DNA from: Candidatus Poribacteria bacterium
Lineage (GTDB): Bacteria; Poribacteria; WGA-4E; WGA-3G
Assembly (NCBI GenBank): GCA_012270875.1
Contig: JAAXHI010000454.1
Coordinates: forward strand, 827-36,903
DNA: 36,077 bases
Direction: 5' to 3'
Shown here: positions 10,075 to 34,200 of the stretch, one piece after another
How positions within the stretch are numbered: position 1 is the first letter of the stretch
How the letters are laid out: each line of letters begins with the position of its first letter
Program-made: the position numbers and the translations under genes
The notes under the pieces: model-generated
The model's input: only the letters and a program-made list of their open reading frames with translations
Told to the model about the DNA's origin: nothing
Database searches by the model: none

Positions 10075-13000
10075 ATGAAAAACGACGATGCTCAACTCAT
10101 CCAACGCGTCCTCGCTGGCGATGAAACTGCGTTCTCTACGCTTGTGAAGAAATACCAGAAGTCGGTGCATGCGCTTGCGTGGCGGAAGGTTGGAGATTTT
10201 CACATTGCCGAGGAGATTACGCAGGATACCTTTTTAAAAGCGTATCAGCGACTTTCTACACTAAAGGAACCACAGCGTTTTCTGAGCTGGCTTTATGTGA
10301 TCGCGACGAACCTCTGTAAAGCGTGGCTTCGGAAAAAGCGTTTGCGAACACAGTCGTTGGAAAACACAGAGAGCATAGCGTTAGAAAAAGCGGCGTATTC
10401 AGGATATGTTATTTCAGAAAATGAACAGACAGCGATAGAAGCGCAACGCGAAGCCGTCAAAAAGTTGCTTGCTAAACTCCAAGAGAGTGAACGCACGGTT
10501 GTCACACTGCACTACTTCAGTGAGATGTCGAGTGCGGAGATTGGCGCGTTCTTAGGTGTTTCGGCAAATACAGTGAGAAGTCGTTTACGCCGCGCACAGC
10601 AACGTTTGAAAAGGGAGGAACCGATGATCCGAGAGGCTTTAGAGAATTTCCAAATCACACCAAATCTTACCGAGAACATCATGTGCGAGATTTCGCGTCT
10701 GAAACCAGTTGCGCCATCTGGCAGTAAACCGTTCGCACCATGGGCAATCGGCGTTTCCACATTAGCGGTTGTCTTATTGATGTTAGGCATCGGCAACCAA
10801 CAGTTATCGCGTTTCCAAAAGCCCTATGATTTCAATGCCGCCTCAGAAATGACGGTAGAGATTATTGAAGCACCCATCGTGCTAAACCTTGACTCTAAGC
10901 CAGATGTTCAGACACAGATCGGCAATTCTACTACACTCAGTAGTAACGGTGGTTCAGGGCAGCAACCAGATGATATCTTATTCGCCGCCGCACAAGCTGA
11001 TGGAGAAAACATCTCTACCCCTAAACAAGAATGGATTCAGGCGGAACCCCTCAAAGGGAGTGATGCCACTGCTTTATCTGTCACACCTGACGGTGAACTT
11101 TACACTGTTGCTGATGAGCGTATCTACAAAATCGGATCCGGCGGGAAAATGTGGCAACAGATCACCGATATTAACGCACTGGGTGTTAATTATATGTGGA
11201 CCGCCCGTATAGAAAAGTGGAATGATACACTCTATCTATCAGTGAGTAATGCACTCCTTGCTTCAAAAGATAACGGCAAGACGTGGGAATTGGTTCACTC
11301 TTTCCCAATAGATTATGGCTTGTTTGCTTTTGATTTGGAACTAACACCACAAGCGTTTTATATTATTTTCTCTGATTCCACTGCTTTTCGGTCTGAAGAT
11401 TTGGGTAAGACTTGGAAGGCAATGAACGTTGTCGGATTTCCAGAGAGACCCAACGCTATGGTCGTGTTCCAAGATACGCTGTTTGCCGGAACAGGTAATG
11501 GACTCTACCGATTGAAGGATAACAACTGGGAACGCGTGGACTTTCCAGTCCCTGTCGGAGAAACCCTTTCAATTGCCACGACTGAAGGAAAAATTTATGT
11601 TGCGGCAAAGTTTAATCAAGATAGAACCAGTTCTCAGCGAGTTCGTCAGGGACAGGCACGTGGCTGGTGGATATTCCGATCAACGGACTTCGGCGATTCG
11701 TGGGACGATATAACACCGACAAACGCTTGGCAGGTCATGGGGTTGCCACCAGAAATCAAACTCGTTGCTACGGGTGAAACGCTTCTGGCAATGGAACGGG
11801 GTATGGTTCGCTCTACCGATAGTGGAGACACATGGCTGCCTCGACAATTACCCGGCACCTCACCCCCAATGGACAGATTTAGTTCGGCTGTCGTAGTGAA
11901 CGACAACACCATTTATATTGGTAGCAGCGACGGTCTTTATCGTTCCACGGATGCTGGTATATCATGGAACGCGGTTAACATCAATAGACAGAATCGGAGT
12001 GGCATATATAATCTAACCGCATATACAGGACAGAATACACCGCCAACGCTTTACGCGATGTTCGGCGGAGAGATCGTAAAAACGACCAACAAGGGCAAAT
12101 CTTGGAGAACGATTCAGATGGGAACACCGATGACAGCACCTGATAGAGAAAAACCACCAACTTTTACGCAGATACGTGAATTCGGTGGGAGTGTCTATGC
12201 CAAAACAATGGGTTCTCGTGGTCCTGGCAACGCGCATAAAACCGGTTTATACCGCATTTCTGCAGACGGTAATACAGTCATGCCGATACAAGACGTGCCG
12301 CTCTTTGACTCACAGGAATTAAGTCGATTTTGGAATATAGGAAGGACAGGTGCTTTAGATGTGTCAGATAAGTCGTTCATTGAACAGTTGAAAGAAAATT
12401 TTAAGGGAGCAGACCAGTTCTTTAAAACGTTGGCACGAGGTGGCACTTTCAATCAACAAGAACTTCTTCGGCAACCACTTTATCAGGACCAGTATCGACT
12501 TATACGGAGGGGTATAAGTGGTGCTTTTGCGGTCAGTGACGACACGTTTTACGTGGAATACAACTTTAAACTCTACCGATGGAAGCCGGGCGAAACCGAA
12601 TGGTACGACACGGGTGTGCAAGAGACCGGCGAACTCCTTTATAGGGAAGCAATGAAGGCATTTGAAGGCATAGGTATGCCAGAGGTAAAGATCGATGAAG
12701 TTCTCTCGACTTGGCGGGGGTTCACACTTGCGGTTTCAGGAAACACGGTCTACGTTGGCAAACGGGATGGACACCTCGTTGCCTCGTTTGATATGGGAAA
12801 TAATTGGCTCGACCTCACGTCAGCACTGCCGTTCCCTGTTAAAGCCTTCAAAACCATCGTGTTTGTAGGATCCACCGTGTATGTAGCAACAGATGCAGGT
12901 GTCGCCGCGTCGGATGATGGAAAACAGTGGCATCCTGTTACCAATGCATCAGGAACGTGTCTCAATATGGGACAACTAACTGTTGCGGGAGACACCCTTT

Positions 13001-13164
13001 ACGGTTTTATCAAAGACACAGGTATCTATCGTTTGGAAAGCGGCACTTGGGAACAGGTTGTCTCAGAAATGCCGGATCATGTAGAGGGGTTCGCCGTTGG
13101 CGAGAATACCTTATACGTGAACACGCGGGACAGCAATGTGCTCCATTTCAACCTCGAAAAATAA
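10075..13164 (+). CDS. ECF sigma factor-TM-Asp-box/BNR beta-propeller fusion
   Basis: MKNDDAQLIQRVLAGD start shared with paralogs (ATG 10075). Region 4 EMSSAEIGAFLGVSANTVRSRLRRA, TM PWAIGVSTLAVVLLMLG, RSTDxGxxW repeats. Confidence 0.93.
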   Translation: MKNDDAQLIQRVLAGDETAFSTLVKKYQKSVHALAWRKVGDFHIAEEITQDTFLKAYQRLSTLKEPQRFLSWLYVIATNLCKAWLRKKRLRTQSLENTESIALEKAAYSGYVISENEQTAIEAQREAVKKLLAKLQESERTVVTLHYFSEMSSAEIGAFLGVSANTVRSRLRRAQQRLKREEPMIREALENFQITPNLTENIMCEISRLKPVAPSGSKPFAPWAIGVSTLAVVLLMLGIGNQQLSRFQKPYDFNAASEMTVEIIEAPIVLNLDSKPDVQTQIGNSTTLSSNGGSGQQPDDILFAAAQADGENISTPKQEWIQAEPLKGSDATALSVTPDGELYTVADERIYKIGSGGKMWQQITDINALGVNYMWTARIEKWNDTLYLSVSNALLASKDNGKTWELVHSFPIDYGLFAFDLELTPQAFYIIFSDSTAFRSEDLGKTWKAMNVVGFPERPNAMVVFQDTLFAGTGNGLYRLKDNNWERVDFPVPVGETLSIATTEGKIYVAAKFNQDRTSSQRVRQGQARGWWIFRSTDFGDSWDDITPTNAWQVMGLPPEIKLVATGETLLAMERGMVRSTDSGDTWLPRQLPGTSPPMDRFSSAVVVNDNTIYIGSSDGLYRSTDAGISWNAVNINRQNRSGIYNLTAYTGQNTPPTLYAMFGGEIVKTTNKGKSWRTIQMGTPMTAPDREKPPTFTQIREFGGSVYAKTMGSRGPGNAHKTGLYRISADGNTVMPIQDVPLFDSQELSRFWNIGRTGALDVSDKSFIEQLKENFKGADQFFKTLARGGTFNQQELLRQPLYQDQYRLIRRGISGAFAVSDDTFYVEYNFKLYRWKPGETEWYDTGVQETGELLYREAMKAFEGIGMPEVKIDEVLSTWRGFTLAVSGNTVYVGKRDGHLVASFDMGNNWLDLTSALPFPVKAFKTIVFVGSTVYVATDAGVAASDDGKQWHPVTNASGTCLNMGQLTVAGDTLYGFIKDTGIYRLESGTWEQVVSEMPDHVEGFAVGENTLYVNTRDSNVLHFNLEK

Positions 13165-13174
13165 TGTACCTATC

Positions 13175-13200
13175 AGGGCGGTCCTAAATGCCGCCCTTTC
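13175..13200 (+). terminator. Probable intrinsic terminator hairpin
   Basis: AGGGCGG-tcctaaatg-CCGCCCT-TTC 10 nt after the stop codon. Homologous hairpins at 25353 and 31138. Confidence 0.65.
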
Positions 13201-13237
13201 CTACCTCTACCCTATCTCCCTGTTCAACGTTAACATC

Positions 13238-13265
13238 TTGACAAACCCATCTGGTTTAGTAAAAT
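13238..13265 (+). promoter_or_regulatory. Sigma70-type promoter TTGACA-N16-TAAAAT
   Basis: Consensus -35 at 13238-13243, near-consensus -10 at 13260-13265. Confidence 0.6.
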
Positions 13266-13305
13266 AGTATTTCACTACATCCAACCCTATTTTTCATAAC
13301 ACATG

Positions 13306-13345
13306 CAGAATTATGCACCAGTTTGCCCCTTAAAAAGCGTCACTA
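13306..13345 (+). promoter_or_regulatory. Putative ECF promoter CAGAATTATGCACC-N18-CGTCACTA
   Basis: Same conserved motif; shares TATGCACCAGTTTG with the 9998 copy. Confidence 0.75.
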
Positions 13346-13366
13346 TAGCGCGATCGGAGGGAATTC

Positions 13367-16300
13367 ATGAAAACCACTGATGTTGAGCTCATCTATCGCG
13401 TTCTTGATGGCGACGATACCGCTTTTACTGTGCTTGTGAAAAAATATCATAAACCGGTTCACGCGCTCGTGTGGCGGAAGATTGGGGATTTCCATATCGC
13501 CGAAGAGATTACGCAGGATACATTCTTAAAGGCATATCAGGAGTTAGCAACGCTGAAGAAACCGCAGAGTTTTGCGAGTTGGCTCTATGTGATTGCTGCC
13601 AACAACTGTAGTACGTGGTTGCGTAAAAGGCGTTTATCGACGGAACCATTTGAAGATGCCCGCCTACAAGAGGCGACGTATTCCGGGTATGTCGTTGCCG
13701 AAAACGAGCGGACAGAAGCAGAGGCACAACGCGAAGTCGTCAAAAAGTTGCTTGCGAAACTCCAAGAGAGTGACCGCACGGTTATCACGCTGCATTACTT
13801 CGGTGAGATGTCCAGTGCGGAGATCGGCGCGTTTTTAGGGGTATCGGCAAACACGGTGAGGAGCCGTCTCCGCCGCGCACAGCAACGTTTGAAAAGGGAG
13901 GAACCGATGATACGAGAAGCATTAGAGAATTTCCAAATCACACCAAACCTTACAGAAAACATTATGCGCGAGGTTTCGCGTCTGAAACCTACTGCGCCAT
14001 CAGGTGGCAAACCGTTGGTGCCGTGGGCGATGGGTGTTTCCGTATTAGCAGTCGTCTTTTTGATATTCGGTATCGCAAACCATCAATCCTTATCGCGTTT
14101 CCAGAAGCCTTACAGTTTCAACGCTGCTTCAGAGTTGAAGGTTGAGTTGATTGACGCTCCGGTTGTGCTAAATCTTGAAGCCGAACCCGATAACCGCACG
14201 CAGCTCGGAAATGCCAACGCGCAGGATAAGAGCAATGGCGTTGGTAACCAAGTTGATGATACCGCGCCGTTTGACTTGGAAACAATCATCAGGAAAATAA
14301 AGCACTACGATAATGCTGTCACCTCCGTAACCGGTGATTTCATCATGGAAAGACAGAGTGGCTTGGGGATCTCGAAAAGAGAATACACACTGACGTTTGC
14401 AGGCGAGAAAGTCCGAATGGATCAGGAACAGGATCATACTCGCGTCCAGCTTTGGGATGGAAAACGACATTGGGAAGCACGCGAAGATAGAAGGATGATC
14501 TTTGAATTTGAAATTGCACCCGGCAAGGAAAAGACAGATATTGAGACGATTCGACAGGCATTCAAACATAACGGTATTGATCTCGCGGACGATGTACGCA
14601 TCGTTGATGACGACGAACCCCAAGATTTCACACTTATTGAAAACGAGACAGATCAAAAATACTATTTCTGGTTGGAGGGAGAGACGACGCTGTTGGTTTA
14701 TGACCTTAATCATCTTCAATATGATGTTCGACCTGGGTGGACAGGTAGTGCTGACAATGATCCGCGGTTTTGGCTCACCTTTCGTCCTGCTTCAAACAAT
14801 TCTTATCTATCCGAACCGCTGTGGTACTTGCTTGAGCAACATGAGAGTGAAATTATCGGGAATGAGATATTGAACGGAGACAAGACATCCGTGATTCGTT
14901 TGAATATACCAGCTCAGTCAAAAGGGGACTTCAAAAGACCTGCCCAGTCCGTTAAACTTTGGATTTCCCATGACAAAGGTTTCCGTCTGGTTAAGTTAGA
15001 AGAAAGTGCCTATACTATAGATAACCGGTCAGCGGGGCTCGGTTTCAAAGCGGGTGTAACCTATATTTCAAGCCGAGAAATTGCGTATCACGAATATCTA
15101 CCGGATGTCTGGTTTCCTGAGAGAATTGAGATATCTATTGCTCCTGTGTCATCACCGGACCAACAAGAGAAAGGTGAACCTGTACTCAAAAAGGTTCTAC
15201 TCACAAAGCAGTGTCGATTAAACACTGATGTCACAGGGTTGCTGGATTTAGGTCTACCGCTTGATACATCTATTTTCGATTACGGAACTGGTAAACCGAG
15301 TACAGTCGGCGATGTGTTAAATCCTGTATCGAAACCAGATATTCGGAAACTCTTCGGAAGTTCCGCTATGCCGGTTAAAAGCGATGGATCTGACCAACAC
15401 ACCTATAATCCATCTGTGTTTGACTTGGAAGCGATCATCACACAGATGAAGCACGCTGATAGTTCTGTCGTTTCCGCAAGCGGCAACTTCGTCATTGAAC
15501 ACCATAGAAAGCCGGGAATCGCGAAAACTGAGTATGCCTTAACGTTTGAAGGTGATGGAATCCGAGTAGAACGAGGATGGGGTTCCCCGCTTGCAGTAAA
15601 AGATTATCCACGCCTCAAAAAGGTTTTTCCGTCTGTTGAACTCGACGATGGAGAACGGCGATGGGAGATATATAAGTACAAAAAACACCTCTTTAGCGTT
15701 GAGATCACACTCGATAAGAAGCAGACAGCTCTTGAAACAATTCGACAGGCGTTCAAACAGCAAGAGATAGCACTTGCTGACGATGTACGCATCGTCGCGA
15801 GTGAAGAACCGGAGAGTTACACGCTTATTGAGAACCAGACGGGTAAAACCTACTTCATCTTGTGGGAAGGCGAAACAACGCTGAAAGTTTATGACCTTCA
15901 ACATACCGAATATGGTATCCGCGATCCATTTCGACGCAAAGTTTCTGACCGTCGTTTCGAGAGTCCACTTCGCTATCAGTGGAATATGCTTGCTGATCTC
16001 GATCCGAGATATTGGCTCACGTATCCAAGTGCTGGTGGAAGGACCTATCTCACAGAACCGCTTTGGCAGCTCCTTGAGAAGCACGAGAGCGAACTCTTGG
16101 GTAGTGAAGTTTTGAACGGTGATGAGACTTCAGTTATTCGTCTAAAGTTACCTGATGAGTCCCTTATCATCTGGATTTCTCATGAGAAGGGTTTTCGTCC
16201 GGTTAAGCTGCAAAGAGCATTTCCGCTTGAGAATCATCCGGTGGATATTATCGCAATGAAGTACTTCCAGTCGGGTGTGAACTATATAGAGACACGGGAA

Positions 16301-16810
16301 ATTGATTATCGCGAATATTTACCCGATGTCTGGTTTCCCAAGAAGATTGAACGGTACTTTACACCGATCGCAGCAGCAGATCTGCCACACGTCGCTGAAA
16401 TCATCCTAAAGACTGTGATTCACACGAAGCAGTGTCGGTTAAACACGGATGTTGCTGAGTTACTCCGTTTAAACCTGTCGCCTGATACACCTGTTCTCGG
16501 TTTAAAACCAGACGACGATACACCAATAGCGGAAAAAGTGGCATATTTACGTCAAGAAATCCCGCGTATCCTTAAACACCGCCTTGACTTAGAGAAACTG
16601 GATGATGAAATTGCTGAGTCTTACGGGGAAGACCCAGATCTTACCTTACTAAGGGATCAAGCTGCAGATGAAGCATTCGCACTGAAAGGGACTATCAGCC
16701 TTTTAACTTTAGACTACATACGATTTGCCGCGGATTCCTCAGCTCTTAAACCGGGCGGAGATTTTTATGAACTGTTGGAGAAAAACGGCATTTTTTATGA
16801 TTTTGAATAA
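13367..16810 (+). CDS. ECF sigma factor-TM fusion with a tandemly duplicated extracytoplasmic domain of about 380 aa (possible LolA/RseB-like fold)
   Basis: ECF regions 2 and 4, then TM. Repeats start FDLETII (14270) and FDLEAII (15419); each contains DPRxWLT, YLxEPLW, WISHxKGFR and EYLPDVWFP. Confidence 0.9.
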   Translation: MKTTDVELIYRVLDGDDTAFTVLVKKYHKPVHALVWRKIGDFHIAEEITQDTFLKAYQELATLKKPQSFASWLYVIAANNCSTWLRKRRLSTEPFEDARLQEATYSGYVVAENERTEAEAQREVVKKLLAKLQESDRTVITLHYFGEMSSAEIGAFLGVSANTVRSRLRRAQQRLKREEPMIREALENFQITPNLTENIMREVSRLKPTAPSGGKPLVPWAMGVSVLAVVFLIFGIANHQSLSRFQKPYSFNAASELKVELIDAPVVLNLEAEPDNRTQLGNANAQDKSNGVGNQVDDTAPFDLETIIRKIKHYDNAVTSVTGDFIMERQSGLGISKREYTLTFAGEKVRMDQEQDHTRVQLWDGKRHWEAREDRRMIFEFEIAPGKEKTDIETIRQAFKHNGIDLADDVRIVDDDEPQDFTLIENETDQKYYFWLEGETTLLVYDLNHLQYDVRPGWTGSADNDPRFWLTFRPASNNSYLSEPLWYLLEQHESEIIGNEILNGDKTSVIRLNIPAQSKGDFKRPAQSVKLWISHDKGFRLVKLEESAYTIDNRSAGLGFKAGVTYISSREIAYHEYLPDVWFPERIEISIAPVSSPDQQEKGEPVLKKVLLTKQCRLNTDVTGLLDLGLPLDTSIFDYGTGKPSTVGDVLNPVSKPDIRKLFGSSAMPVKSDGSDQHTYNPSVFDLEAIITQMKHADSSVVSASGNFVIEHHRKPGIAKTEYALTFEGDGIRVERGWGSPLAVKDYPRLKKVFPSVELDDGERRWEIYKYKKHLFSVEITLDKKQTALETIRQAFKQQEIALADDVRIVASEEPESYTLIENQTGKTYFILWEGETTLKVYDLQHTEYGIRDPFRRKVSDRRFESPLRYQWNMLADLDPRYWLTYPSAGGRTYLTEPLWQLLEKHESELLGSEVLNGDETSVIRLKLPDESLIIWISHEKGFRPVKLQRAFPLENHPVDIIAMKYFQSGVNYIETREIDYREYLPDVWFPKKIERYFTPIAAADLPHVAEIILKTVIHTKQCRLNTDVAELLRLNLSPDTPVLGLKPDDDTPIAEKVAYLRQEIPRILKHRLDLEKLDDEIAESYGEDPDLTLLRDQAADEAFALKGTISLLTLDYIRFAADSSALKPGGDFYELLEKNGIFYDFE

Positions 16811-16874
16811 GAAAAATTTATAGATCATAGGGGCAGGCGATGGTTTTCGAGTCAGTGAATATTAGGAGCAAGCA

Positions 16875-18239: not shown

Positions 18240-18252
18240 AAAAGATAAAAAA

Positions 18253-18281
18253 TTGACTGTCCCCGGAATTTGTGGTAAAAT
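18253..18281 (+). promoter_or_regulatory. Sigma70 promoter of the TA operon: TTGACT-N17-TAAAAT with TG extension
   Basis: -35 at 18253-18258, TGG at 18273-18275, -10 at 18276-18281. Confidence 0.7.
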
Positions 18282-18320
18282 ACTGGAAACTGTGACCTTG
18301 GACAAGGAGAAGCTTAAAAG

Positions 18321-18554: not shown

Positions 18555-18567
18555 GGTCGAAAAATAG

Positions 18568-18998: not shown

Positions 18999-19043
18999 TG
19001 TGTTGATATGAAATACTGAACATTCCCTATCCAGAGGTATCCG

Positions 19044-22289: not shown

Positions 22290-22334
22290 AGGGTTGATGT
22301 AAAGTAATGAACATTCCCTGTCCAGAGGTATCCG

Positions 22335-25331
22335 ATGAAAAATGACGATGTTCAGCTCATTCAACGCGTCCTTGAAGGCGATGATACGGCGTTCTCCACA
22401 CTTGTGAAAAAATATCAGCGATCTGTTCATGCGCTTGCGTGGCGGAAGGTCGGAGATTTCCATATTGCCGAGGATATTACACAGGATTCGTTCCTCAAAG
22501 CGTATCAGCGACTCTCTACGTTGAAGGAGCCACAGTCCTTTGCGAGTTGGCTGTACGTCATCACCGCAAATCAGTGTAAAGCGTGGATTCGGAAGAAACG
22601 GACGTGGATTCAGTCGTTGGAAGACACAAGCAGCGTACAGTTAGAAAGAGCGACCTACTCTGGACATATCATTGCGGAGAACGAGCAGATGACAGAAGAA
22701 GCACAACGTGAAGTCGTCAAGAAACTACTCGCCAAATTACAAGAAAGTGACCGAACGGTCATTACGCTCTATTACCTCGGGGGAATGACGTATGAAGAAA
22801 TTAGCAATTTTTTAGGTGTATCGGTAGGTGCGATTAAAAGTCGGCTTCACCGAGCAAGGCAGCGCTTAAAAAAGGAGGAACCGATGATTAGAGAGGCTTT
22901 AGGCAATTTCCAAATTACGCCGAATCTTACCGAGAATATCATGCAAGAAATCTCGCGTCTGAAACCGATTGCACCATCAGGTAGCAAACCGATTGTGCCG
23001 TGGGGAATCATAGGTGTTTCCACAATAGCAGTCGTCTTTTTAATATTAGGTGTTGGCACGGAGTACTTATCGCGTTTTCAAAAACCGTACAGTTTTGATG
23101 CGACATCAGAAATGATGGTTGATATTATTGAAACGCCAATCGTATTAGATATTGAATCGAAACCCGATGTCCGGACGCAACTTGGCAGCACTACCGCGCT
23201 CAGTAAAAACGATGGTGCCGGTCAGCAACCTGATGAGGTCTTATTTGCTGCTGCACAAGCAGAAGGAGAGGACGTTTCTGTCCCGAAACAGCAGTGGATC
23301 CGGGCAGGACCGATCAAAGGAAGTAGAGCAGAAGGTTTACTTGCGACATCTGAGGGTGAGTTTTACACTTTTGCTGATATGCAAATTTACAAATTAGAAA
23401 CCGATGGAAAAAAGGGGCGACACATCTTTGATTTTAGGTCCCTGGTAAATTCTCGTCCGCCAGCTGCACCGCTCGCAAAGTGGAAAGACACCCTCTACAT
23501 TATGCTGGCAAACGAACTTCTTGCTTCAAAGGACGACGGTCAGACATGGAATTTGGTACACACTTTGCCAGCCGTACATTACTTTGCGATTGGTTTGATA
23601 CTAACGGATCAAGCGTTCTATGCCGCTTTTGAGGACGGTATTTTCCGTTCTGAGGACCTTGGCAAAACGTGGAAGGCAATAAACGATGGATTAATGATGG
23701 GGGATATGGGGTATATCCGTTCTATCGTCAATATTCAAGACACATTGTTTGCTGGGACCAGCAACGGACTCTACCGCCTCAGTGCTGACAGTTGGCAACG
23801 TGTGGCGTTTCCAGTATCCGTTGGACGGATCCGTTCAGCTGCAGCGACTGAAGAGAAACTTTACGTTGTTGCGGAGATGGCTGATACGGATCCTCGTAAA
23901 GTTTCCAGGGGGCTGCAGCGGGCTTGGTCAATATTTCGCTCAACTGATTTGGGGAGTTCGTGGGACGATATTACACCAACAAACGCTTGGGCAGTAAAAG
24001 GATGGCCACCCTCTATTAAACTTATTGCTGCTGGCGACACACTTTTAGCGATGGAACAAGGGATGGTGCGCTCTACCGATGGTGGAAACACGTGGCTGCC
24101 CACACAATTACCCGGGACATCCCCTACAATGAATGCTGATGTAGACGTTGCGATAGCAGTAAACGACGTTTTTTATGTTGGGAGTTGGCGTAGTGGACTC
24201 CATCGTTCTACCGATGCTGGCAAATCGTGGAACATCGTAAACATCACGCCGGATACAGGTCAAATAGGTAATCTCATCGCGCATAGAAAAAACAACACAC
24301 CTCTGACGCTCTACGCGAGATATGAAGAAGAAAAGGTCGTAAAAACCACTGATAGAGGTAAGTCTTGGAAGACCGTTCAAATAGAAATGCCGATGACAGT
24401 GCCTCGCAGAGAAAGCATACCAAGTATTACCCATATCGTCAAAGCCGATGGTAAAATCTATGCCAAAGGTGGCGATGTGCTTGGTAGAGGAAAGACGCGA
24501 ATATATCGCGTATCTACAGATAGCAATTCGCTTGTTCCGATACAAGGCATGCCGATCTTTGACGGAATGCCTTTAACGTTCGAGTCAAGTCGAATAAGGG
24601 GAATGAGAAGGGACGGGGCTAACTTGTCAGATGCCTCAGTCATTGAGCAGTTGCGAGAAAAGGCTCCTGGTGCGGACGAATTCTTCAGGCAGTTGGTAGA
24701 ATGGGATCCTCTACAGCCAGATGTCTATATACAATTAGGGTTCCGTAGGGGGGCGTTTGCTGTTAGTGGCGACACGTTCTACATGGAATACAACTATAAA
24801 CTCTTCCGATGGGAACCCGGTGATACTGAATGGTACGACACCGAACAGGAAGCAACCGTTGAACTGTCTCTGGGCTTAGCATCCAGAAAGCTTAAGCTCG
24901 CGACTTCAGGGAACACCGTCTACGTCGGCAAACGGGATGGGCACCTCGTGGTCTCGTTTGATAAAGGAAACAATTGGATTGATCTCACGCCGATCTTACC
25001 CTTTCCCATCAAAGCCTTTTATGATATAGTGTTTGTGGGTTCCACGGTATATGTAGCAACGGATGCGGGTGTCGCTGCATCAAGTGATGGCAAACAGTGG
25101 CGTGCGATCACCGATGCAACGGGCACGCCTCTTATTATCGGGCCGTTGGCAGTTGATGGCACAAACGTTTATGGTGTTTCCAAGTCAGGTGTCCATCGGT
25201 TGGAAAACGGCACATGGAAAGAGGTTATTTCAGAGAGACCAAATAGCATGACCTCGCTTGCTGTTGATGGGAACATGTTGTACGTCGGCACGCAGGACAG
25301 CGGGGTGCTGCATTTCAATCTTGACGAATAA
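22335..25331 (+). CDS. ECF sigma factor-TM-Asp-box/BNR beta-propeller fusion
   Basis: Region 4 GMTYEEISNFLGVSVGAIKSRLHRA. Sensor closely related to 10075 (WDDITPTNAW, VYVGKRDGHLV). Confidence 0.93.
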   Translation: MKNDDVQLIQRVLEGDDTAFSTLVKKYQRSVHALAWRKVGDFHIAEDITQDSFLKAYQRLSTLKEPQSFASWLYVITANQCKAWIRKKRTWIQSLEDTSSVQLERATYSGHIIAENEQMTEEAQREVVKKLLAKLQESDRTVITLYYLGGMTYEEISNFLGVSVGAIKSRLHRARQRLKKEEPMIREALGNFQITPNLTENIMQEISRLKPIAPSGSKPIVPWGIIGVSTIAVVFLILGVGTEYLSRFQKPYSFDATSEMMVDIIETPIVLDIESKPDVRTQLGSTTALSKNDGAGQQPDEVLFAAAQAEGEDVSVPKQQWIRAGPIKGSRAEGLLATSEGEFYTFADMQIYKLETDGKKGRHIFDFRSLVNSRPPAAPLAKWKDTLYIMLANELLASKDDGQTWNLVHTLPAVHYFAIGLILTDQAFYAAFEDGIFRSEDLGKTWKAINDGLMMGDMGYIRSIVNIQDTLFAGTSNGLYRLSADSWQRVAFPVSVGRIRSAAATEEKLYVVAEMADTDPRKVSRGLQRAWSIFRSTDLGSSWDDITPTNAWAVKGWPPSIKLIAAGDTLLAMEQGMVRSTDGGNTWLPTQLPGTSPTMNADVDVAIAVNDVFYVGSWRSGLHRSTDAGKSWNIVNITPDTGQIGNLIAHRKNNTPLTLYARYEEEKVVKTTDRGKSWKTVQIEMPMTVPRRESIPSITHIVKADGKIYAKGGDVLGRGKTRIYRVSTDSNSLVPIQGMPIFDGMPLTFESSRIRGMRRDGANLSDASVIEQLREKAPGADEFFRQLVEWDPLQPDVYIQLGFRRGAFAVSGDTFYMEYNYKLFRWEPGDTEWYDTEQEATVELSLGLASRKLKLATSGNTVYVGKRDGHLVVSFDKGNNWIDLTPILPFPIKAFYDIVFVGSTVYVATDAGVAASSDGKQWRAITDATGTPLIIGPLAVDGTNVYGVSKSGVHRLENGTWKEVISERPNSMTSLAVDGNMLYVGTQDSGVLHFNLDE

Positions 25332-25352: not shown

Positions 25353-25380
25353 TGGGCGGTGCAACAATACCGCCCATTCT
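25353..25380 (+). terminator. Probable terminator hairpin
   Basis: TGGGCGGT-gcaacaat-ACCGCCCA-TTCT after the stop codon. Confidence 0.6.
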
Positions 25381-25529
25381 CTCCGTATTCAAATCCTCAA
25401 TAATTTACGCAAATATTTACACGCCCTTTCCAGATCAGATGCGCTTTTAGCTGCATTTGTGGTATAATATTTTGATATAAGTGAGAATTGCTTGGATTGT
25501 GCCTACTACGGCTTAAGGAGGGAACCCCC

Positions 25530-27860
25530 ATGATTTGCGACGCTTTAGACAATATTCAATTCATGCCAAATGCTACACAGCGCGTAGGACGTGAAATGCT
25601 ATGTACCAAATCTACTAAACTGTTAGTGTCATGGACAATCGCTGCTTTGATGGTGATTGTGCTGCTGATGCAGACACATCAGGTCTTAGCCAACCAAGAG
25701 GACTATACCCGATGGGGATTACCTAAAGGTGCCAAAGCACGGATCGGGAAAGGTGTGTTCACTGATATGCAGCTATCACCGGATGGCACGCGTTTGGCGA
25801 TTGCGAGTTCCGCAGGTGTCTGGCTTTATGATGTCAGTACAGGGGATGAGATTGCGCTTATCACGGAGAATACGACTCTCATCGGACAGGTCGCCTTTTC
25901 TCCTGACAGTACAACGCTTGCGACTGCTGGTGGGGACAACAAATGTCAAATCTGGGATGTTGAAAGTCGGACACTTCTACTGACATTCAAGATGCCTGAT
26001 TATTGGATCAAGACATTGGCATTCATGGATGACGGAAAAACCCTCGTCGGCGAAGGGATAATTGACAAAATCTCACACCCTCTGTTGGGGGGTGGACCTT
26101 GGATGTGGGATGTTCCCAAGGTCTGGATGTGGGATATCCAGACTGGAAAGCAGTTAGATACTTTCACCACTGAACTGCCGAGATTCAATCCGATGAAAGA
26201 TGTGCGGTCCAGTGTCATGGTAAAGGCATTTGCCAATAACGATCGTGTTATATTTGCCTTTGAGAATAAAGACGGAACGATTAGCGTCAAAGATGGACGC
26301 ACTAACCGCGAAGTAGCTGTGCTTCCCAATCTTAATGACGAGGTAAAAGCGTTCGGTTTTTCACCAGATGGTAAAGGGGTTGCCATTGCGACTTCAAGGG
26401 ACGTACATCTCTGGGACCTTGAGACAGGAGAACAGATACTAACATTTCCAAAGCAGGTTGCAGATTTCTATGGAAATCCGTCTATACTGGCATTCTCAAA
26501 AGATGGAAAAACGCTTGCCGTTGCGGGTTTAGACGACATTGAGATATGGAATATGGATACGCATTCGCATGTTGCTACACTTAAAAATACAGATGGCGGT
26601 TTGTGGGAATTTGTGTTATCAAGGGACGGCGCAACCGTCATCACTATGAATCACCACGGCAGGGTAGATTTGTGGTCGGCACAGACCGGCAAACATGAAC
26701 GCACCTTGACGATAGGATATACGAATAGATTCTCCAAGTTGGCGTTCGCGCCCGATGGGAAAACGATTGCGAGTAGCACGGGTAGCAAAGTTCACCTGTG
26801 GGATACAAACACTCGGACTGAAAGATTGCGGATGCAACTGCCCGGACGCATTGAAAATGAAAAAAAACGGGTTGAACCGGATTTGCGAGCCGCTGTGCCG
26901 ATAGAACGTGGAAGTGAAATCATCGGCTTAGCGTTTTCTGAATATAACACACCGCTCGCTGCTGCCGCGTATAGCAAAACTCTCGTCGCTTTTACCGTTT
27001 CCGGCAAAGTTGAAATATGGGATGTCGCTACTGGAGAATATAGTGCCGATTATACCCTCGCGGACATGCCTCGTAAAGGGATGCCAGGGCTGTTAGCACC
27101 CGATTTGACTGCTGTGCCAACGCCTCGGACCCCGGGAATATATCACCTCTTCGCAACACCGTTTGAGAGATCAGGTCACGCCTTGTATGCAGCTGCCTTT
27201 TCACCAGATGGTGAAAAACTAACTGTTAAAAATCGGGACGACGTGATGGAGATATGGGATGTTCTGACCCGTAGACGCTTATGCACACTCCCAGATCGCT
27301 CTCCAAACAAGAGTGCCGCGTTGGCATCTACGTTGGCATTCACACCGGATGGCGAAGTGCTTGCGATTGGTGAAGGTGCGGATGTCCATCTGTCACATAC
27401 GGATACAGGTGAAACGTTTGCCATATTCAGCGTCTCTCAGGAGAAACCGAATGCGATAGATAAATTACAAGGATTGTTCGACTCGCAGCGTTTTGATGTA
27501 TCGGTCGGTGCCGTAGCATTAGCGCGCCCTGGAAAACTTCCGGCTGTTGCTGCGAGTGGAGGCAAGACAATTTATTTTTGGAACATCGCAAAGCGGGAAC
27601 CTATTACGCTCAAAGAACATACAAGTGAAGTCTGTAAACTGGCGTTCACACCCGACGGCACTGTTCTGGCAAGTGGTGATGTTGATGGGACAATTCACTT
27701 GTGGTCGCTGCCCGCAGGAGACAAAATTGCCACATTCAATCCGTATGTGAGTCCCGTTAGTCAGTTAGTTTTCTCACCTGATGGAAAAACTCTTGCAAGC
27801 ACAAACCTACATTCTCGTTTTGCTGGAACGATACTCCTTTGGGACGTTCCACCCAAGTAA
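25530..27860 (+). CDS. Membrane-anchored or secreted WD40 protein; sigma-less paralog of the ECF-WD40 fusions
   Basis: AAGGAGGG RBS before ATG 25530. N-terminus MICDALDNIQFMPNATQRVGREM..KLLVSWTIAALMVIVLLM aligns with the ECF linker + TM. EDYTRWGLPKGAKARIGKG then WD40 repeats. TGGTATAAT at 25460-25468. Confidence 0.88.
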   Translation: MICDALDNIQFMPNATQRVGREMLCTKSTKLLVSWTIAALMVIVLLMQTHQVLANQEDYTRWGLPKGAKARIGKGVFTDMQLSPDGTRLAIASSAGVWLYDVSTGDEIALITENTTLIGQVAFSPDSTTLATAGGDNKCQIWDVESRTLLLTFKMPDYWIKTLAFMDDGKTLVGEGIIDKISHPLLGGGPWMWDVPKVWMWDIQTGKQLDTFTTELPRFNPMKDVRSSVMVKAFANNDRVIFAFENKDGTISVKDGRTNREVAVLPNLNDEVKAFGFSPDGKGVAIATSRDVHLWDLETGEQILTFPKQVADFYGNPSILAFSKDGKTLAVAGLDDIEIWNMDTHSHVATLKNTDGGLWEFVLSRDGATVITMNHHGRVDLWSAQTGKHERTLTIGYTNRFSKLAFAPDGKTIASSTGSKVHLWDTNTRTERLRMQLPGRIENEKKRVEPDLRAAVPIERGSEIIGLAFSEYNTPLAAAAYSKTLVAFTVSGKVEIWDVATGEYSADYTLADMPRKGMPGLLAPDLTAVPTPRTPGIYHLFATPFERSGHALYAAAFSPDGEKLTVKNRDDVMEIWDVLTRRRLCTLPDRSPNKSAALASTLAFTPDGEVLAIGEGADVHLSHTDTGETFAIFSVSQEKPNAIDKLQGLFDSQRFDVSVGAVALARPGKLPAVAASGGKTIYFWNIAKREPITLKEHTSEVCKLAFTPDGTVLASGDVDGTIHLWSLPAGDKIATFNPYVSPVSQLVFSPDGKTLASTNLHSRFAGTILLWDVPPK

Positions 27861-27949
27861 AACCGACCGCGTCATGGGTAACACCAAATCAGAAAGATAA
27901 AGTCACATTATAGAGATTTTGGAACGCTATGAGGTATCGGTCTGTAAGA

Positions 27950-28003
27950 GCGCAATAATGCACGTCGCATTTGGGCGAGTACGCCGCAGAATTGCGCTAC
28001 TAC
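27950..28003. repeat. REP-like stem GCGCAAT..ATTGCGC-TACTAC enclosing dispersed repeat copy 2
   Basis: GCGCAAT 27950-27956 pairs with ATTGCGC 27991-27997; the inner 31 bp match 417-447. Confidence 0.75.
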
Positions 28004-28059
28004 GAGCGGGTTTTTCCTTAGTGAGAGGCGTTTATTTAGAAATGGTATAATCATTATTG

Positions 28060-28099
28060 CAGAATTATGCAACCGTTTTCCGCCTAAGTCGCGTCACTA
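28060..28099 (+). promoter_or_regulatory. Putative ECF promoter CAGAATTATGCAAC-N18-CGTCACTA
   Basis: Conserved motif. It lies inside the ORF-track extension 28057-28143, which supports ATG 28144 as the true start. Confidence 0.75.
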
Positions 28100-28143
28100 A
28101 GAGTCAATGTGGAATATTGAACTCCCTATTTTGGAGAAGTCTG

Positions 28144-29754
28144 ATGAAAAACGACGATACCCGACTGATTCAATGCGTCCTTGCCGGCGATGATACTGCT
28201 TTTGCTGAGCTTGTGAAAAAGTACCAGAAGCCGGTTCACGCGCTTGTGTGGCGGAAAGTTGGTGATTTCCACGTCGCCGAGGAAATTACACAGGACACCT
28301 TCCTGAAGGCATACCAGAAACTGACGACGCTCAAGGAGCCGCAGCGTTTTGTGAGTTGGCTTTATGTAATAGCCACGAACCGTTGCAAGGCATGGCTGCG
28401 TAGGAAACGTTTATGGATGCAGTCGTTGGATGCCACGAGTAGTAGGCAGTTGGAAAAGGCTACATATTCTGAATATGTCATTTCGGAGAACGAACGCGTA
28501 ACAGTAGAAACACAGCGCGAAGTCGTCAAAAAGCTGCTTGCGAAGTTACAGGAGAGTGAGCGGACAGTCATGACACTCCACTATTTCGGGGAGATGACGT
28601 GTGAAGATATTAGCAAGTTTTTGGGTGTATCGGTAGGTGCGATTAAGAGTCGGCTCAGGCGTGCGCGCCACCGCTTAAAGAAGGAGGAACCCATGATACG
28701 CGAGGCTTTAGAACATTTCCAAATCACACCGAATCTGACAGAGGATATCATGCGCGAGGTTTCGCGTCTGAAACCGATTGCGCCGTCTGGTAGCAAGCCG
28801 TTCGTGCCGTGGGCAATCGGCGTTTCTACGTTAGCAGTCATCCTTTTGATGTTAGGTGTCGGAAACCGTCAATACCTGTCGCGTTTCCAAAAATCGTATA
28901 GTTTTGATGCGACTTTAGAGATGAGCGTTGAACTCATTGATGCACCGATTGTGTTGAATCTTGAATCCAAACCTGATGTTCGGACGCAGCTCGGCAATGC
29001 TGCCACCCCCAGTAAAAACGACGGGTTCAGTCAACAACTCGATCAACCAGAACATACAACCCTATTTGCTGCCGCGCAGGTAGATCAAACTGAGAAACCT
29101 ACTGTTACTGATAAAGGTAATCGCTACATCATCCTTGAGACAAGCACCCATGAGGAAGGTGGAGAAGTTTTTGCGAGCGGAAGTTTTTCTTTTACGAGAA
29201 CAGGTGAGATTTTGACAGTTACAAAGGCTGGAACTACCGGGACCGGTAAAGGTGACGCAACCCCGATGTACGTGTTGATGAGTTATATTCTCAACCATAA
29301 TATTGACCTTTTCAAGTTCCCTTTGGTTATAGGAGATACTTGGACACAGAAAGGTCCCTGGGCCCCACACATACAGACGACCTTAGTGGGTTATGAAAAG
29401 GTAGAAGTTGCCGGAGGGACTTTCACGGACTGCCTTAAGCATGAAACGCTTTTTACAAACGCGAGGGTAGGTGCTGGCACGCGTTATTTGTGGTTTGCCA
29501 AAGGGGTTGGTGTCGTTAAAATGCGCTATGAACATTCCAACGGTGTCACCACTGAAGCAGAATTGCTTAACTACAATGTTCCGAAAGGCGAAGAATATCT
29601 CCCTTTGCAATACGGTAATATGTGGACCTACAGATTGCAAAACGAGTCTCAAGAAAAACCGATTATTGAAAAGTGCGAGGTTGTCGAAAATAGCGATCAG
29701 CCCTTAGATTCTGTCGATTCTTATTTTTTTCTCACGCTCCTCCAAAAGCTCTGA
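28144..29754 (+). CDS. ECF sigma factor-TM fusion, 5' part; appears to continue by a -1 frameshift at T7 (29724-29730) into the next ORF
   Basis: MKNDDTRLIQ start with GGAGA RBS, ECF regions 2 and 4, TM, then a domain with VEVAGGTFTDCLK..WFAKGVGVVK. Ends with a short tail after the T-run. Confidence 0.88.
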   Translation: MKNDDTRLIQCVLAGDDTAFAELVKKYQKPVHALVWRKVGDFHVAEEITQDTFLKAYQKLTTLKEPQRFVSWLYVIATNRCKAWLRRKRLWMQSLDATSSRQLEKATYSEYVISENERVTVETQREVVKKLLAKLQESERTVMTLHYFGEMTCEDISKFLGVSVGAIKSRLRRARHRLKKEEPMIREALEHFQITPNLTEDIMREVSRLKPIAPSGSKPFVPWAIGVSTLAVILLMLGVGNRQYLSRFQKSYSFDATLEMSVELIDAPIVLNLESKPDVRTQLGNAATPSKNDGFSQQLDQPEHTTLFAAAQVDQTEKPTVTDKGNRYIILETSTHEEGGEVFASGSFSFTRTGEILTVTKAGTTGTGKGDATPMYVLMSYILNHNIDLFKFPLVIGDTWTQKGPWAPHIQTTLVGYEKVEVAGGTFTDCLKHETLFTNARVGAGTRYLWFAKGVGVVKMRYEHSNGVTTEAELLNYNVPKGEEYLPLQYGNMWTYRLQNESQEKPIIEKCEVVENSDQPLDSVDSYFFLTLLQKL

Positions 29755-29825
29755 GGACTATACCTGATTTATCTGAAAAAGTTTCAATAATTATAGAGGA
29801 CATACGGATCGGTTTCAGTGAGGTA

Positions 29826-31064: not shown

Positions 31065-31137
31065 AAGTGAGTGAGGTCTATCACAAGAGAGATACCTGAC
31101 CCTTTTATCCGCTAAGTATGAATTAGTTTATTTTGTC

Positions 31138-31164
31138 AGGGCGGTGCTAAATGCCGCCCTTTTC
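31138..31164 (+). terminator. Probable terminator hairpin
   Basis: AGGGCGGT-gctaaat-GCCGCCCT-TTTC, nearly identical to 13175. Confidence 0.65.
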
Positions 31165-31203
31165 CACCTTTCCTCTTCTCTTTCCTTCACAATCCACTTT
31201 TTT

Positions 31204-31243
31204 CAGAATTAAGCAACCATTTTGCCCCTAAATTGCGTCACTA
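31204..31243 (+). promoter_or_regulatory. Putative ECF promoter CAGAATTAAGCAAC-N18-CGTCACTA
   Basis: Conserved motif ending 46 nt upstream of ATG 31290. Confidence 0.75.
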
Positions 31244-31289
31244 TAGGTTGATATGTTATTAATCAACTACCGCTTTCTGGAGGCAGCTG

Positions 31290-34200
31290 ATGAAAAACAA
31301 CGATGTTGCACTTATTCAACGAGTTCTCGCTGGTGATGAAACCGCTTTTGCTGAACTGATAAAAAAATATCAAAAGCCAGTTCACACGTTGGCGTGGCGA
31401 AAAATCGGGGATTTTCATATCGCTGAGGACATCACCCAGGAGGTCTTCCTGAAAGCGTATCAGAGACTCCATATCCTGAAAGATCCGAACCAGTTTTCTG
31501 GATGGCTTTATGTGATTACGGCGAACTTATGTGCCACATGGCTCCGCAAAAAACGGATACAGACGCAACCGTTGGGGGACACAGAACCAACGATGATACA
31601 AGAAGATACTTATTCTCGACATGTTGTAGAAGAGCGAATGAAAACCACAGCGGAATCACAACGCGAAGTCGTCAAAAAGCTGCTGGCGAAGTTGAAAGAG
31701 AGTGAACGCACAGTGATGACGCTCCACTACCTTGGTGAGATGACGGTTGCAGAAATTAGCCGATTTTTAGGCGTATCGGCGAGTACCATTAAAAGTCGTT
31801 TGAGACGGGCACGAAACCGTTTAAAAGAGGAGGAGCCGATGATTAGAGAAGCACTTGAGCATTTCCAAATTACACCGAATCTTACAGAGAATATCATGCA
31901 AGAGATATCGCGGTTGAAACCGGTTGCACCGTCAGGCAGTAAGCCGTTAGTGCCGTGGGCAATGGCTGCTTCTACAGTAGCAATCGTCCTTTTGATGTTC
32001 GGCATGGGAAATCAGTATATGTCGCGTTTCCAAGAGCCGTATAGTTTCGACGCGCCATCAGAGATGACAGTTGAGCTCATTGAAGCACCCCTTGTGCTGA
32101 ACCTTGAGGTCTCCAAACCCGATATTCGGACGCAACTTGGGAGTGTTCGCACACCGAACGAGGGAAAGATCTCCAACCAGCAGCCTAACGACGTTTCGGC
32201 ATCGGCTGCAGAAGCCGAAGCAGATGAGAGAATTAAAAACTACGCGCATTGGAAGCTGCCCAAAGCCGCAAAAGCACGTTTCGGAAAAGGTGGGATTACC
32301 ACAATTCAGTTTTCACCGGATGGAACCCTACTCGCAGTGGGTAGTAATATCGGGGTATGGCTGTATGATGTGGCAACAGGTGAGGAGAAATTTTTGTTTG
32401 GTAGTGGAATGTGTGAAGCCCTCCAATTTTCACCTGATGGCCGTTTCCTTACTGCTTCTTCTGAGGAGACGCTCATCCAATTATGGGAGATCGCTACCGG
32501 GCGCGAAGTGCCGCTTATTGATTTGTACGGAGAAGCTTCCGTATTGCGATTCTCTTCAGATGGGAAAACGCTGATCGGTTTGTATAGTGATGGGCATGCT
32601 GCGATTACGCGATTGAATATTGAGAGCGGTAAAGGGAAAACAAAACACCTTAAAACTGGGTTATTCGGGATCGGTCTCTTGAGTTGGGAGGATTTTAGTG
32701 GTGTTTACGCGATGACGGGCGATAAAATCGCGATTGGCAAACCGGACGGGACGATTCAGTTATGGGACGTAGCAACCCGTAAAAAGTTATCGACGCTCAG
32801 AGGACACGTAGATTTGCCGCTTCAGCCGTTAGATAAACTTGTGCATCGCAAACGTCCGTTTAGCAGACGGATTTTAGCAGTGGCGTTTTCGCCGGATGGT
32901 ACCCGTCTCGCCAGTGGTGGGGCAGATAATACAGTCCGATTGTCGAATCTCACTGGCGATCGAGATTCGATGACGTTGCAGAAACATACTGGACCGGCAA
33001 ATGTGCTGGCGTTTTCACCCGATGGAAAAATGCTTGCCAGCGGCAGTACCGATAAAACAGTGCAATTGTGGGACACCGCCACTGGCGAACCCCTCCTGAC
33101 GCTCACCGGCCATATCAACGGTATTACGGCGTTAGCATTTTCACCCGACGGTAACCACTCGTAAGCGGGAGTACGGATGGCACAATCCGATTCTGGCAGA
33201 CAGCAACTGGGGCTCCAGCAGATACCCTTATTACTGGACACACACAATCCATAAAAGCGGCGACCTTCTTTCAAGATCGTAATAGGGGCGAGGTGACCTT
33301 GAAGAAACACCCAAGCAAAAACCCCCTACTGGTAAGTGCGGCGTTTAACGGTGAAATTACCTTTTGGGATGTGGACGCAGCGCAGCGTAGGGACGAGGTG
33401 ACCACGCCCCTACGCCAAAATAGTGGACATCGGGATTGGTACTTAGCTTTAGCGTTTTCACCGGATGGCACGAAACTCGTCAGTGCAGGGACAGACGGTA
33501 CGAAAGTTTTCGGTGGGTTCCCTACTGGATTCTCTATTATTACGAAGCCAGATAATCTAACTCGGTTGACGGATGTATCGACTGGAGCCGAACTTGCGAC
33601 GTTGCAGCGAGGAAGCAGCAAACTTATCTTTTCTCCTGACGATAGAACTAAAACGGTGGCGATTACTTCGAGAGGTGCCATTCGCTTATGGAATACGGAA
33701 ACAGGCGATGAATTGGTCATTCCGATTCATGATGACCTACCCCTCGGCTTTCACCACAATGTGCCAACGGTTTTGGCAGTGGCGTTTTCGCCAGATGGTA
33801 GATGGCTTGTGAGTGGAACTACAGAAGGGGAAATCCGAATGTGGGACGTTGCGACCGGTGAAGCTTTGACCGTCTTTTCAGAACTGACAGAACCGATGGA
33901 ACAAGAGCATCTGAGGCATATTTCGGCATTGGCGTTTTCACCGGACCGCGCCTTGCTCGCTGCGGGTACACCGACGCAACTCCATTTATGGGACGTGCGT
34001 ACCGGTCATAAACTTTTTTCGGTTAGCACTGTGTATACACGCGGTTGGCGGACATACCATGATTATCCAAAACCGTTGGTGTTTTCGCCGGATAGTGCAA
34101 TTCTCCTCAGTGGGCATGGGGGCGGGACAATCCAATTATGGGATGCCAAGACTGGAGACAGCATCGCTGCGCTTGATGGGCATACACAGCAAGTGGAGAC

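Follow-up and report, generated by a model that had tools for sequence, protein, structure and literature searches.

Hybrid proteins that unite an extracytoplasmic function (ECF) sigma factor and an anti-sigma factor in one polypeptide have been described before. The available text of PMC8999054 and PMC5411451 names IutY of Pseudomonas putida (ECF243), SCO4117 (ECF52) and the groups ECF48 and ECF53, and the accessible part of PMC7826278 also deals with fused sigma/anti-sigma proteins. For the hybrids, release of the sigma domain by regulated proteolysis is the presumed mode of activation (PMC8999054, PMC5411451, available text). In-frame internal starts that give N-terminally truncated isoforms are also known. 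The available text of a preprint (bioRxiv 10.1101/520783) describes ArcB-C of E. coli and names infB, clpB and mrcB as well, and the review PMC13515050, in its accessible part, is cited alongside. Here, we analyze a 36-kb stretch of DNA (the window, G000:C350:827-36903) from a 5.74-Mb, 598-contig assembly with 47% GC of a sponge-symbiont member of the Poribacteria. Six genes for membrane-tethered ECF sigma factors in this window contain, at the border between the sigma domain and the membrane-anchored part, a Shine-Dalgarno (SD) sequence followed by an in-frame ATG. We estimate a probability of roughly 60%, judged from comparative sequence data, that these are maintained internal initiation sites from which each of the six genes also makes a sigma-less linker-transmembrane-sensor isoform. 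Both ingredients, the sigma/anti-sigma fusion and the in-frame internal start, have precedents, and what appears to be new is their combination.

The window genes are one-component, membrane-tethered ECF sigma/sensor fusions, an identity that follows from their Pfam domains, an AlphaFold2 fold and Foldseek matches. Seven paralogous genes on the + strand are alike in their N-terminal 290 residues and differ in their C-termini. Their parts follow in the order sigma2-sigma4, two short helices, a single transmembrane (TM) helix, a conserved juxtamembrane segment and a variable propeller or other sensor. Pfam places Sigma70_r2 and Sigma70_r4 at the N-terminus and BNR/Sortilin-type or WD40 propellers, or nothing, downstream. 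In the five full-length proteins scanned, Sigma70_r2, Sigma70_r4/r4_2 and Sigma70_ECF score above the Pfam cut-offs, as expected of ECF (group 4) sigma factors; for the gene at 19044 sigma rows are not among the 25 Pfam matches listed. The fusions with continuous open reading frames (ORFs) are found at 10075..13164 (ECF sigma with regions 2 and 4, two-helix linker, TM helix and BNR/Sortilin-type propeller; Pfam Sigma70_r2, r4, Sortilin-Vps10 and PSII_BNR), 13367..16810 (sensor of unknown family; ORF and Pfam), 19044..21881 (WD40 propeller; ORF, Pfam and fold), 22335..25331 (BNR-type propeller; ORF) and 28144..29754 (small sensor; ORF and Pfam). Sigma, TM and extracytoplasmic domain thus lie in one uninterrupted ORF, with a modelled helix at residues 228-243 and the propellers downstream of it. 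The ORF of the sixth gene, a WD40 fusion at 31290..33164, is broken and its WD40 part resumes in another frame at 33293-34300, so that this gene (31290-34300) likely contains a frameshift or is a pseudogene. The seventh gene, at 627..3704 (ORF and Pfam), is a divergent paralog of the same architecture with about 50% identity.

The gene at 19044-21881 was used as the reference for alignments and fold. An AlphaFold2 model of its residues 1-260, built from a 75-row alignment (mean predicted local distance difference test score, pLDDT, 79), shows an ECF sigma fold, two helices at 182-191 and 198-209 (pLDDT ~90), a low-confidence stretch rich in Pro, Ser and Gly, and the hydrophobic helix 228-243. 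The best Foldseek matches are the ECF sigma factors SigW, AlgU, RpoE and CnrH in the compact anti-sigma-bound state (SigW/RsiW 5wur, E 2e-7; CnrH/CnrY 4cxf_A, TMt 0.76, root mean square deviation 4.3). Like IutY and the ECF52 hybrids, the window genes encode an N-terminal ECF sigma factor, one TM segment and an extracytoplasmic sensing part in a single polypeptide. In contrast to these hybrids, they have no detectable anti-sigma domain of the FecR or zinc-finger type, their sensors are BNR or WD40 propellers, and they belong to a family that has grown to dozens of members per genome; the available text of PMC8999054 and PMC5411451 mentions no internal start for the hybrids. The family was found in all 41 genomes sampled from the order and in 109 of the 121 sampled from the phylum; in the genus of the window (g1) the number of matches in a genome runs from 24 to at least 57. 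Tandem arrays of up to ~14 copies occur, for example at G008:C1:1524000-1575000 (L031-L033), with similar arrays in G001, G002, G009, G013, G019, G021 and G023. Members of an array keep the N-terminal 290 residues and have swapped sensors (BNR propeller, WD40, others), which suggests that the sensor domains undergo modular shuffling downstream of the juxtamembrane segment.

The pattern GGAGGNNNNNATG occurs on the + strand at 10614, 13897, 19583, 22874, 28683 and 31829 and at two unrelated sites. These eight matches compare with 0.87 expected from shuffles, a statistic that overstates independence since the six copies are paralogs. A pattern search and the ORFs bear out what an earlier note on this DNA had reported, namely six in-frame GGAGG-N5-ATG sites just after sigma region 4. 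They lie at 10614..10626 (ATG 10624, the Met being residue 184; AGG GAG GAA CCG ATG), 13897..13909 (ATG 13907; AGG GAG GAA CCG ATG), 19583..19595 (ATG 19593; AAG GAG GAA CCG ATG), 22874..22886 (ATG 22884), 28683..28695 (ATG 28693; AAG GAG GAA CCC ATG) and 31829..31841 (ATG 31839; GAG GAG GAG CCG ATG). All six ATGs are in frame, and each context reads ...RLK[K/R/E]EEP-M-IREAL. The internal Met lies 4-5 residues past the end of the Pfam r4 match and at the beginning of the confidently predicted helix 182-191. The SD sequences at the annotated starts are mixed (GGAGG at 13367 and 31290, GAGG at 19044 and 22335, GGAG at 28144), and the start at 10075 indeed has only GGGATA, as the earlier note had said. 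The divergent paralog at 627 reads CGG GAC GAA GAA CGC TTG and has neither SD nor ATG, again in agreement with that note. It had further argued that GGAGG survives amino-acid changes. The codon before GAG does always end in G (AAG three times, AGG twice, GAG once) and the next Glu is GAG in 6/6; within the six genes, however, the amino-acid changes are no test of this, because AAG to AGG or GAG are single changes at codon position 1 or 2. Some copies carry A_AAA_AAG before the motif, and a frameshift signal was therefore considered; the K179 codon is AAA in only 25/88, so there is no conserved slippery site.

The site fits the way in which this organism marks its starts. The 3' end of the 16S rRNA reads GATCACCTCCTTT, a canonical anti-SD (CCUCC), and the AAGGAGG of the 19583 site is therefore its perfect 7-nt complement. 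Before the first start codons of 3564 ORFs of at least 200 aa, with crude first-start calls, GGAG peaks sharply at -11/-10. An SD-like motif at a spacing of 4-10 precedes 34% of these 3564 crude starts and 4.6% of 20,235 internal in-frame ATGs. The window genes thus present, six times, an in-frame start preceded by an SD at the usual spacing of the organism. Within coding sequence GGAGG is under-used (10.6% vs 14.6% expected in 3619 [K/E/Q]-E-[G..] contexts), and GAG (35%), AAG (34%) and AGG (7%) are all minority codons of the genome.

The earlier note had proposed to compare synonymous constraint at these codons across homologs. We have made this comparison in three clades, whose trees span 3.6 to 11 substitutions per site, and the outcome favors a selected site. 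For genus g1 the best match from each of 24 other g1 genomes and the tandem arrays from ten genomes were collected. The 133 full-length N-termini were reduced to 120 by dropping identical, short and N-containing sequences and then to 95 with at least 65% identity to the 19044 gene; these 95 non-identical homologs span 25 genomes. Fitch changes were counted on a FastTree tree (total length 11) built without the junction columns. ATG is present in 91/95 sequences, preceded by GGAGG-N5 in 85, GGAGG-N8 in 2, GAGG-N5 in 2, AGGA in 1 and no motif in 1. The remaining four have GAGG followed by CTC (3, in one clade) or by GTG (1). The third base of column 180 evolves most slowly among the 61 purine-ending columns (G in 88, A in 7; 2 changes), although no residue varies more than the one encoded there (K 65, E 16, R 11, Q 3). 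At column 181, 91 sequences use GAG and 4 use GAA; its 4 changes put it at about the 5th to 6th place of 61, or the 6th among 68 two-fold columns. Nothing sets the flanking codons apart, with 18 changes at L178, 14 at K179, 8 at E182, 16 at P183 and 24 at I185. In two of the four sequences with GAA, GGAGG has re-formed 3 nt farther upstream (AAG GAG GAA GAA and GAG GAG GAA GAA).

Families f2 and f3 of the same order (20 sequences, tree length 5.2) carry the motif one codon farther from the ATG, for example as AAG GAG ATG ATA CCG ATG ATG, GAG GAG CTA ATT AAA ATG or AAG GAG GAA TTA ACG ATG. At the first SD third position G is found in 19/19 and 0 changes are counted, which is rank 1 of 24, the residue being E in 11 and K in 9. 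The second is GAG in 18/20 (rank 2-3 of 24), against a background of 46% for GAG and 44% for AAG. In genus g9, represented by one match from each of 20 genomes, all 20 read [AC]AG GAG GAA NNN ATG, and the codon directly upstream ends in A in 18/20. Eight of the 54 purine-ending columns are invariant in g9, and the only two that are fixed for G are the two SD positions, at a background of 36-39% G-ending codons. Free use of AAA-GAA-GAA or replacement of the Met among homologs, which the earlier note had named as speaking against its proposal, was not seen inside the Met-bearing clades. Conservation of the start together with a local excess of synonymous conservation is the pattern expected of a functional internal start, and it is present here.

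Motif and ATG also vary together. Among 144 family members the Met column holds ATG in 116, of which 112 have an SD motif and 4 none; a non-start codon in 21 (7 with motif, 14 without); and GTG or TTG in 7 (1 with, 6 without). An SD motif at a spacing of 5-11 nt thus accompanies 112/116 sequences with ATG vs 8/28 without it. These counts are inflated by kinship, and their direction is consistent across clades. Nine homologs from four other families or classes, with 31-44% identity, place AGGAG or GGAGG 9-12 nt before ATG(ATG) with different intervening amino acids, and eight further distant homologs have neither motif nor ATG. One of the nine (L106) builds AGGAG from AAA GGA GAG (K-G-E), that is from other amino acids. 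Where the ATG has been lost, the motif is in most cases degraded or missing: the CTC clade reads AAA GAG G, C502 reads AGA GAG with GTG, L091 AAA GCG GAA with CTG and C186 AAA GAG GAA with ATA. An exception is L053, with GTA at the Met column and AGGAG kept. Within the source genome tblastn gave 56 high-scoring segment pairs, 39 of which cover the junction. Their Met column is ATG in 17, GTG in 1, TTG in 8 and another codon in 13 (CTG, CTA, CTT, CTC, TTA, ATT, ATA, GTC, TTC), and the paralogs with Leu or another non-Met residue there mostly read GAA GAA. P-M or P-V stands at this place in the 12 closest paralogs (at least 58% identity), of which 8 carry GGAGG, 2 only GAGG and 2 no motif.

The internal site is used as a start by sigma-less genes. 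At 25530..27860 on the + strand lies a sigma-less paralog (linker, TM and WD40; ORF and Pfam) that begins at the Met homologous to the internal Met. Here a 24-nt remnant of the sigma4 end, cggcttAAGGAGGgaaccccc, now supplies the SD and the start of a stand-alone gene (GGAGG-N8-ATG, 25517..25532). An extended -10-like box, TGGTATAAT, is found 62 nt upstream of the gene, at 25460..25468. Intact sigma-less orthologs are present in G009 (L083; TGGTATAAT and GGGAGG-N6-ATG) and in another metagenome-assembled genome (L137; AAGGAG-N6-ATG). A second, independent sigma-less copy (L043/L122) consists of a decayed sigma4 remnant, ~110 nt of other sequence and then ATAAAGAAGGAGGAACCC ATG. In addition, among roughly 1800 database homologs, five of the best 120 are annotated with a start at MIREAL..., and two of these five lie on contigs of 62 and 160 kb. 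The SD-ATG site thus works as a start at the 5' end of a gene; inside the full-length mRNA it would probably do so as well. The TGGTATAAT box also precedes the G009 ortholog (L083) and an N-terminally deleted remnant in G021 (L084), and an identical box stands at 28043-28051, 5' of the ECF gene at 28144. A repeat element upstream of the sigma-less gene was considered as the cause of the deletion and rejected; the genome has a single instance of the exact pattern, and the 200 nt upstream are likewise single-copy.

Maintained internal initiation appears to be the most economical reading, because it accounts for an SD at the preferred spacing, a conserved in-frame ATG at a domain border, silent-site constraint against codon bias, motifs rebuilt in other registers and loss of the motif together with the ATG. 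Each gene would then encode a one-component membrane-tethered ECF sigma factor, and AAGGAGG-N5-ATG at the sigma4/linker border would be a selectively maintained initiation site on the same mRNA. From ribosomes binding there a second product would arise in the same frame, shorter by about 183 residues (~21 kDa). This short product would consist of a cytoplasmic two-helix stub, the TM helix and the sensor of its parent, a single-pass protein with its N-terminus inside like a classical anti-sigma factor. The short isoform might modulate signalling as a threshold-setting sigma-less twin, as a decoy for ligand or protease, or by re-binding released sigma through the two helices, and competition between the two SD sites would determine how much of each product is made. 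RNA folding supports such a site. In a random 40 of the 95 sequences, no part of the first 900 nt is less structured than the 50-nt windows at the internal ATG (z = +1.06 ± 0.09), with a mean free energy of -6.3 and -4.2 kcal/mol at offsets 0 and +30 vs about -9 elsewhere; the purine-rich composition may account for part of this. Upstream of the internal ATGs at 19593, 22884, 28693 and 31839 no promoter-like site was found on the + strand within ~200 nt, and any short product would therefore come from the full-length mRNA. This is neutral for internal initiation and offers no separate transcript.

A far-reaching version of this idea would see a two-in-one gene throughout the phylum. The 25 to 60 or more paralogs per genome would each co-produce a tethered sigma factor and its sigma-less twin, the twin acting as a paralog-specific anti-sigma factor or insulator, with a ratio given by the competing SDs, so that each pathway sets its own threshold and crosstalk is prevented. 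We regard this extension as speculative and rather doubtful. Indirect hints of a possible anti-sigma function are the two confidently predicted helices after sigma4 and the compact conformation of the modelled sigma. The modelled compact arrangement of sigma2 and sigma4 and the short two-helix stub (~42 residues before the TM helix in the AlphaFold2 model) resemble the class II anti-sigma factor CnrY, a short two-helix protein, bound to CnrH (PDB 4cxf), whereas the window linker has no sequence similarity to CnrY. Complex prediction of sigma 1-183 with linker 184-230 gave scores of 0.09 and 0.05 (mark 0.32) and was run without controls, so that it speaks neither for nor against binding.

Several observations weigh against internal initiation of a sigma-less product. 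The earlier note had seen a possible anti-sigma factor in the short isoform. While the SD-ATG pair is probably under selection, as judged from three clades and from joint decay, no anti-sigma domain is recognisable by sequence: Pfam gives no anti-sigma family (FecR, zinc-finger/ZAS, RskA) on the linker-TM part at E up to 10, and the PDB holds no sequence match. On the side of expression, the stretch is partly present in 4/20 listed runs, one of them recorded as RNA. Three raw-read RNA runs gave 0 reads, and the one recorded as RNA gave only contigs of relatives that are 92-99% alike, so that these runs are uninformative as to a second product. In the source genome 22/39 junctions have no ATG; much of the family works without the site, which is therefore not intrinsic to the sigma-TM-sensor architecture. 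In its nearest 12 paralogs E181 GAG (9/11), E182 GAA (10/12) and P183 CCG (11/12) do not stand out from the other codons (66 two-fold and 47 four-fold columns). These 12 paralogs alone would point to an ordinary explanation, and the wider sampling reversed that. Elsewhere in g1, D277 GAT (0 changes), D17, S252 AGT and Q58 CAG are equally or more invariant at synonymous sites without any SD reason, so that site-specific synonymous constraint is not unique to the SD motif. Tandem paralogs can exchange sequence and kin are not independent, and the ranks therefore overstate significance. Seven sequences with a non-start codon retain an SD-like 4-5-mer, for example C304 with GGAGG before TTA. The Met and K/E-E could also be retained for protein reasons. 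Finally, the sigma-less WD40 gene is decayed in G008 (SD lost, ORF cut to 464 aa) and G021 (N-terminus deleted) and has matches in only 7/31 genus genomes, and hence the sigma-less protein is not clearly under selection.

A first alternative holds that GGAGG is kept at the nucleotide level for a reason other than initiation, either as an RNA or DNA element or because pairing with the anti-SD pauses ribosomes at the domain border and lets sigma fold before linker and TM emerge; no sigma-less protein would then be made. The synonymous constraint fits this as well, since it reveals selection on the motif and not its purpose. The motif sits exactly at the domain boundary, and the 7/21 non-start sequences that still bear GAGG or GGAGG are easily accommodated. 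However, the motif co-varies with ATG at 5-11 nt, has decayed wholly or partly in most lineages without the ATG, keeps the spacing of the real starts of the genome and is the working start of sigma-less genes. The reality of SD-like pausing in vivo is itself disputed. We therefore consider a purely non-initiating role unlikely.

A second alternative invokes ancestry and protein constraint only. K/E-E-E-P-M would be a feature of the sigma4 C-cap and linker, possibly at an old operon junction, and the silent Gs would reflect descent, gene conversion or chance. The six window copies are recent paralogs, their codons are not unusually conserved in the 12-member subclade of the source genome, and K to R and K to E changes leave the third base untouched. 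Single GGAGG-N4-10-ATG sites are moreover common (70 internal in-frame sites in the 3564 long ORFs, 9 in the ECF family and 61 outside), and other invariant codons exist. Yet in each of three clades these two third positions are the most conserved or close to it, while adjacent synonymous sites are scrambled and G is the disfavored ending. The motif has been rebuilt from different codons or in another register, and clades that have E-E but Leu for Met mostly use GAA GAA. An explanation by ancestry and protein constraint alone thus seems quite unlikely.

It might also be that the site is silent in intact genes, where elongating ribosomes occlude it, and that it becomes a standby start after loss of sigma, with selection, if any, acting through the repeated birth of sigma-less sensors. 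Sigma-less derivatives do repeatedly begin within 18-24 nt upstream of this ATG, and gene callers pick this start in 5/120 close database homologs. Future use, however, cannot maintain silent sites by selection, the derivatives are few and partly decaying, and the constraint is present in the intact genes themselves, all of which makes a mere standby role improbable. That the site is a mere fossil of an operon junction, as the earlier note had suggested as an alternative, is argued against by the conservation of silent Gs in three clades and by SD decay where the Met is lost.

An origin of the fusion at an operon junction may be considered separately from the maintenance of the site. A canonical ECF sigma/anti-sigma operon junction has the same layout, with the SD in the last region 4 codons and then the ATG of a single-pass membrane protein with its N-terminus inside. 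In contrast to such a junction, the window genes have no stop codon and the reading frame runs through. Among the junction-covering family matches no split form of sigma and sensor was found, and the 10 matches that end short of the junction are short, truncated or, in the one that was read, from a different ECF operon. The fusion may have arisen at an operon junction. A classical ECF sigma/zinc-finger-type anti-sigma junction of another ECF group is present in a related genome (L118, G081:C144); an SD-like AAAGGGGAA lies in the last sigma codons, followed by the stop and, a few bases later, the anti-sigma start.

Maintained internal initiation would place the window genes beside the ArcB-C type of internal start. 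In both, an SD-like sequence and an in-frame start would set off a stand-alone C-terminal module of a signalling protein, and synonymous conservation serves as support (bioRxiv 10.1101/520783, available text). According to the same text, retapamulin ribosome profiling located the sites of the ArcB-C type, and western blots and mutations confirmed them, whereas the evidence for the window site is comparative. Unlike the ArcB-C type, the window site lies between a sigma factor and the part that tethers it to the membrane, and it is conserved in a family of paralogs that extends through the phylum. In literature searches that did not extend to supplements or subscription journals, we found no description of internal translation initiation with an anti-sigma factor, only unrelated items, and no paper on Poribacteria with a sigma factor and WD40 or with extracytoplasmic function. 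Should the internal start be used, a regulator and a truncated form able to modulate it would be encoded by a single ORF. This would bear on how dozens of near-identical membrane-tethered sigma factors coexist without crosstalk, would allow the stoichiometry of sigma to anti-sigma to be set without a second gene, and would offer a route for the interconversion of fused and split sigma/anti-sigma architectures. The family is also a well-replicated example, from an uncultivated phylum, of synonymous-site constraint marking a likely internal start. Since SD and canonical anti-SD pair perfectly over 7 nt, the internal start is directly testable in a heterologous or cell-free system.

Some further features of the window and its relatives were noted. 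A TGAAC(A/T)(T/C)CC-like word stands ~25 nt 5' of the annotated ATG in several ECF genes (~19015-19025, 22306-22316, 28115-28125 and 31262-31270) and recurs in paralogs elsewhere in the assembly, on other contigs; these genes may share it as an element of the 5' untranslated region or of the promoter. An Rfam scan of the window gave 0 matches. Between 3758 and 8962 lie five tandem paralogs that encode secreted PD40/TolB-like beta-propellers of ~340 aa, each with a signal peptide, one of which bears a chance GGAGG-N5-ATG at 4922. The intergenic region 27900-28060 contains a dispersed repeat of ~150 nt, with its core near 27950-28005 and a short copy near 417-450. It has roughly 95 blastn matches on ~85 contigs of the same genome and accounts for a spike in depth (205; 27828-28491) as well as for the loose ends of metatranscriptome contigs.

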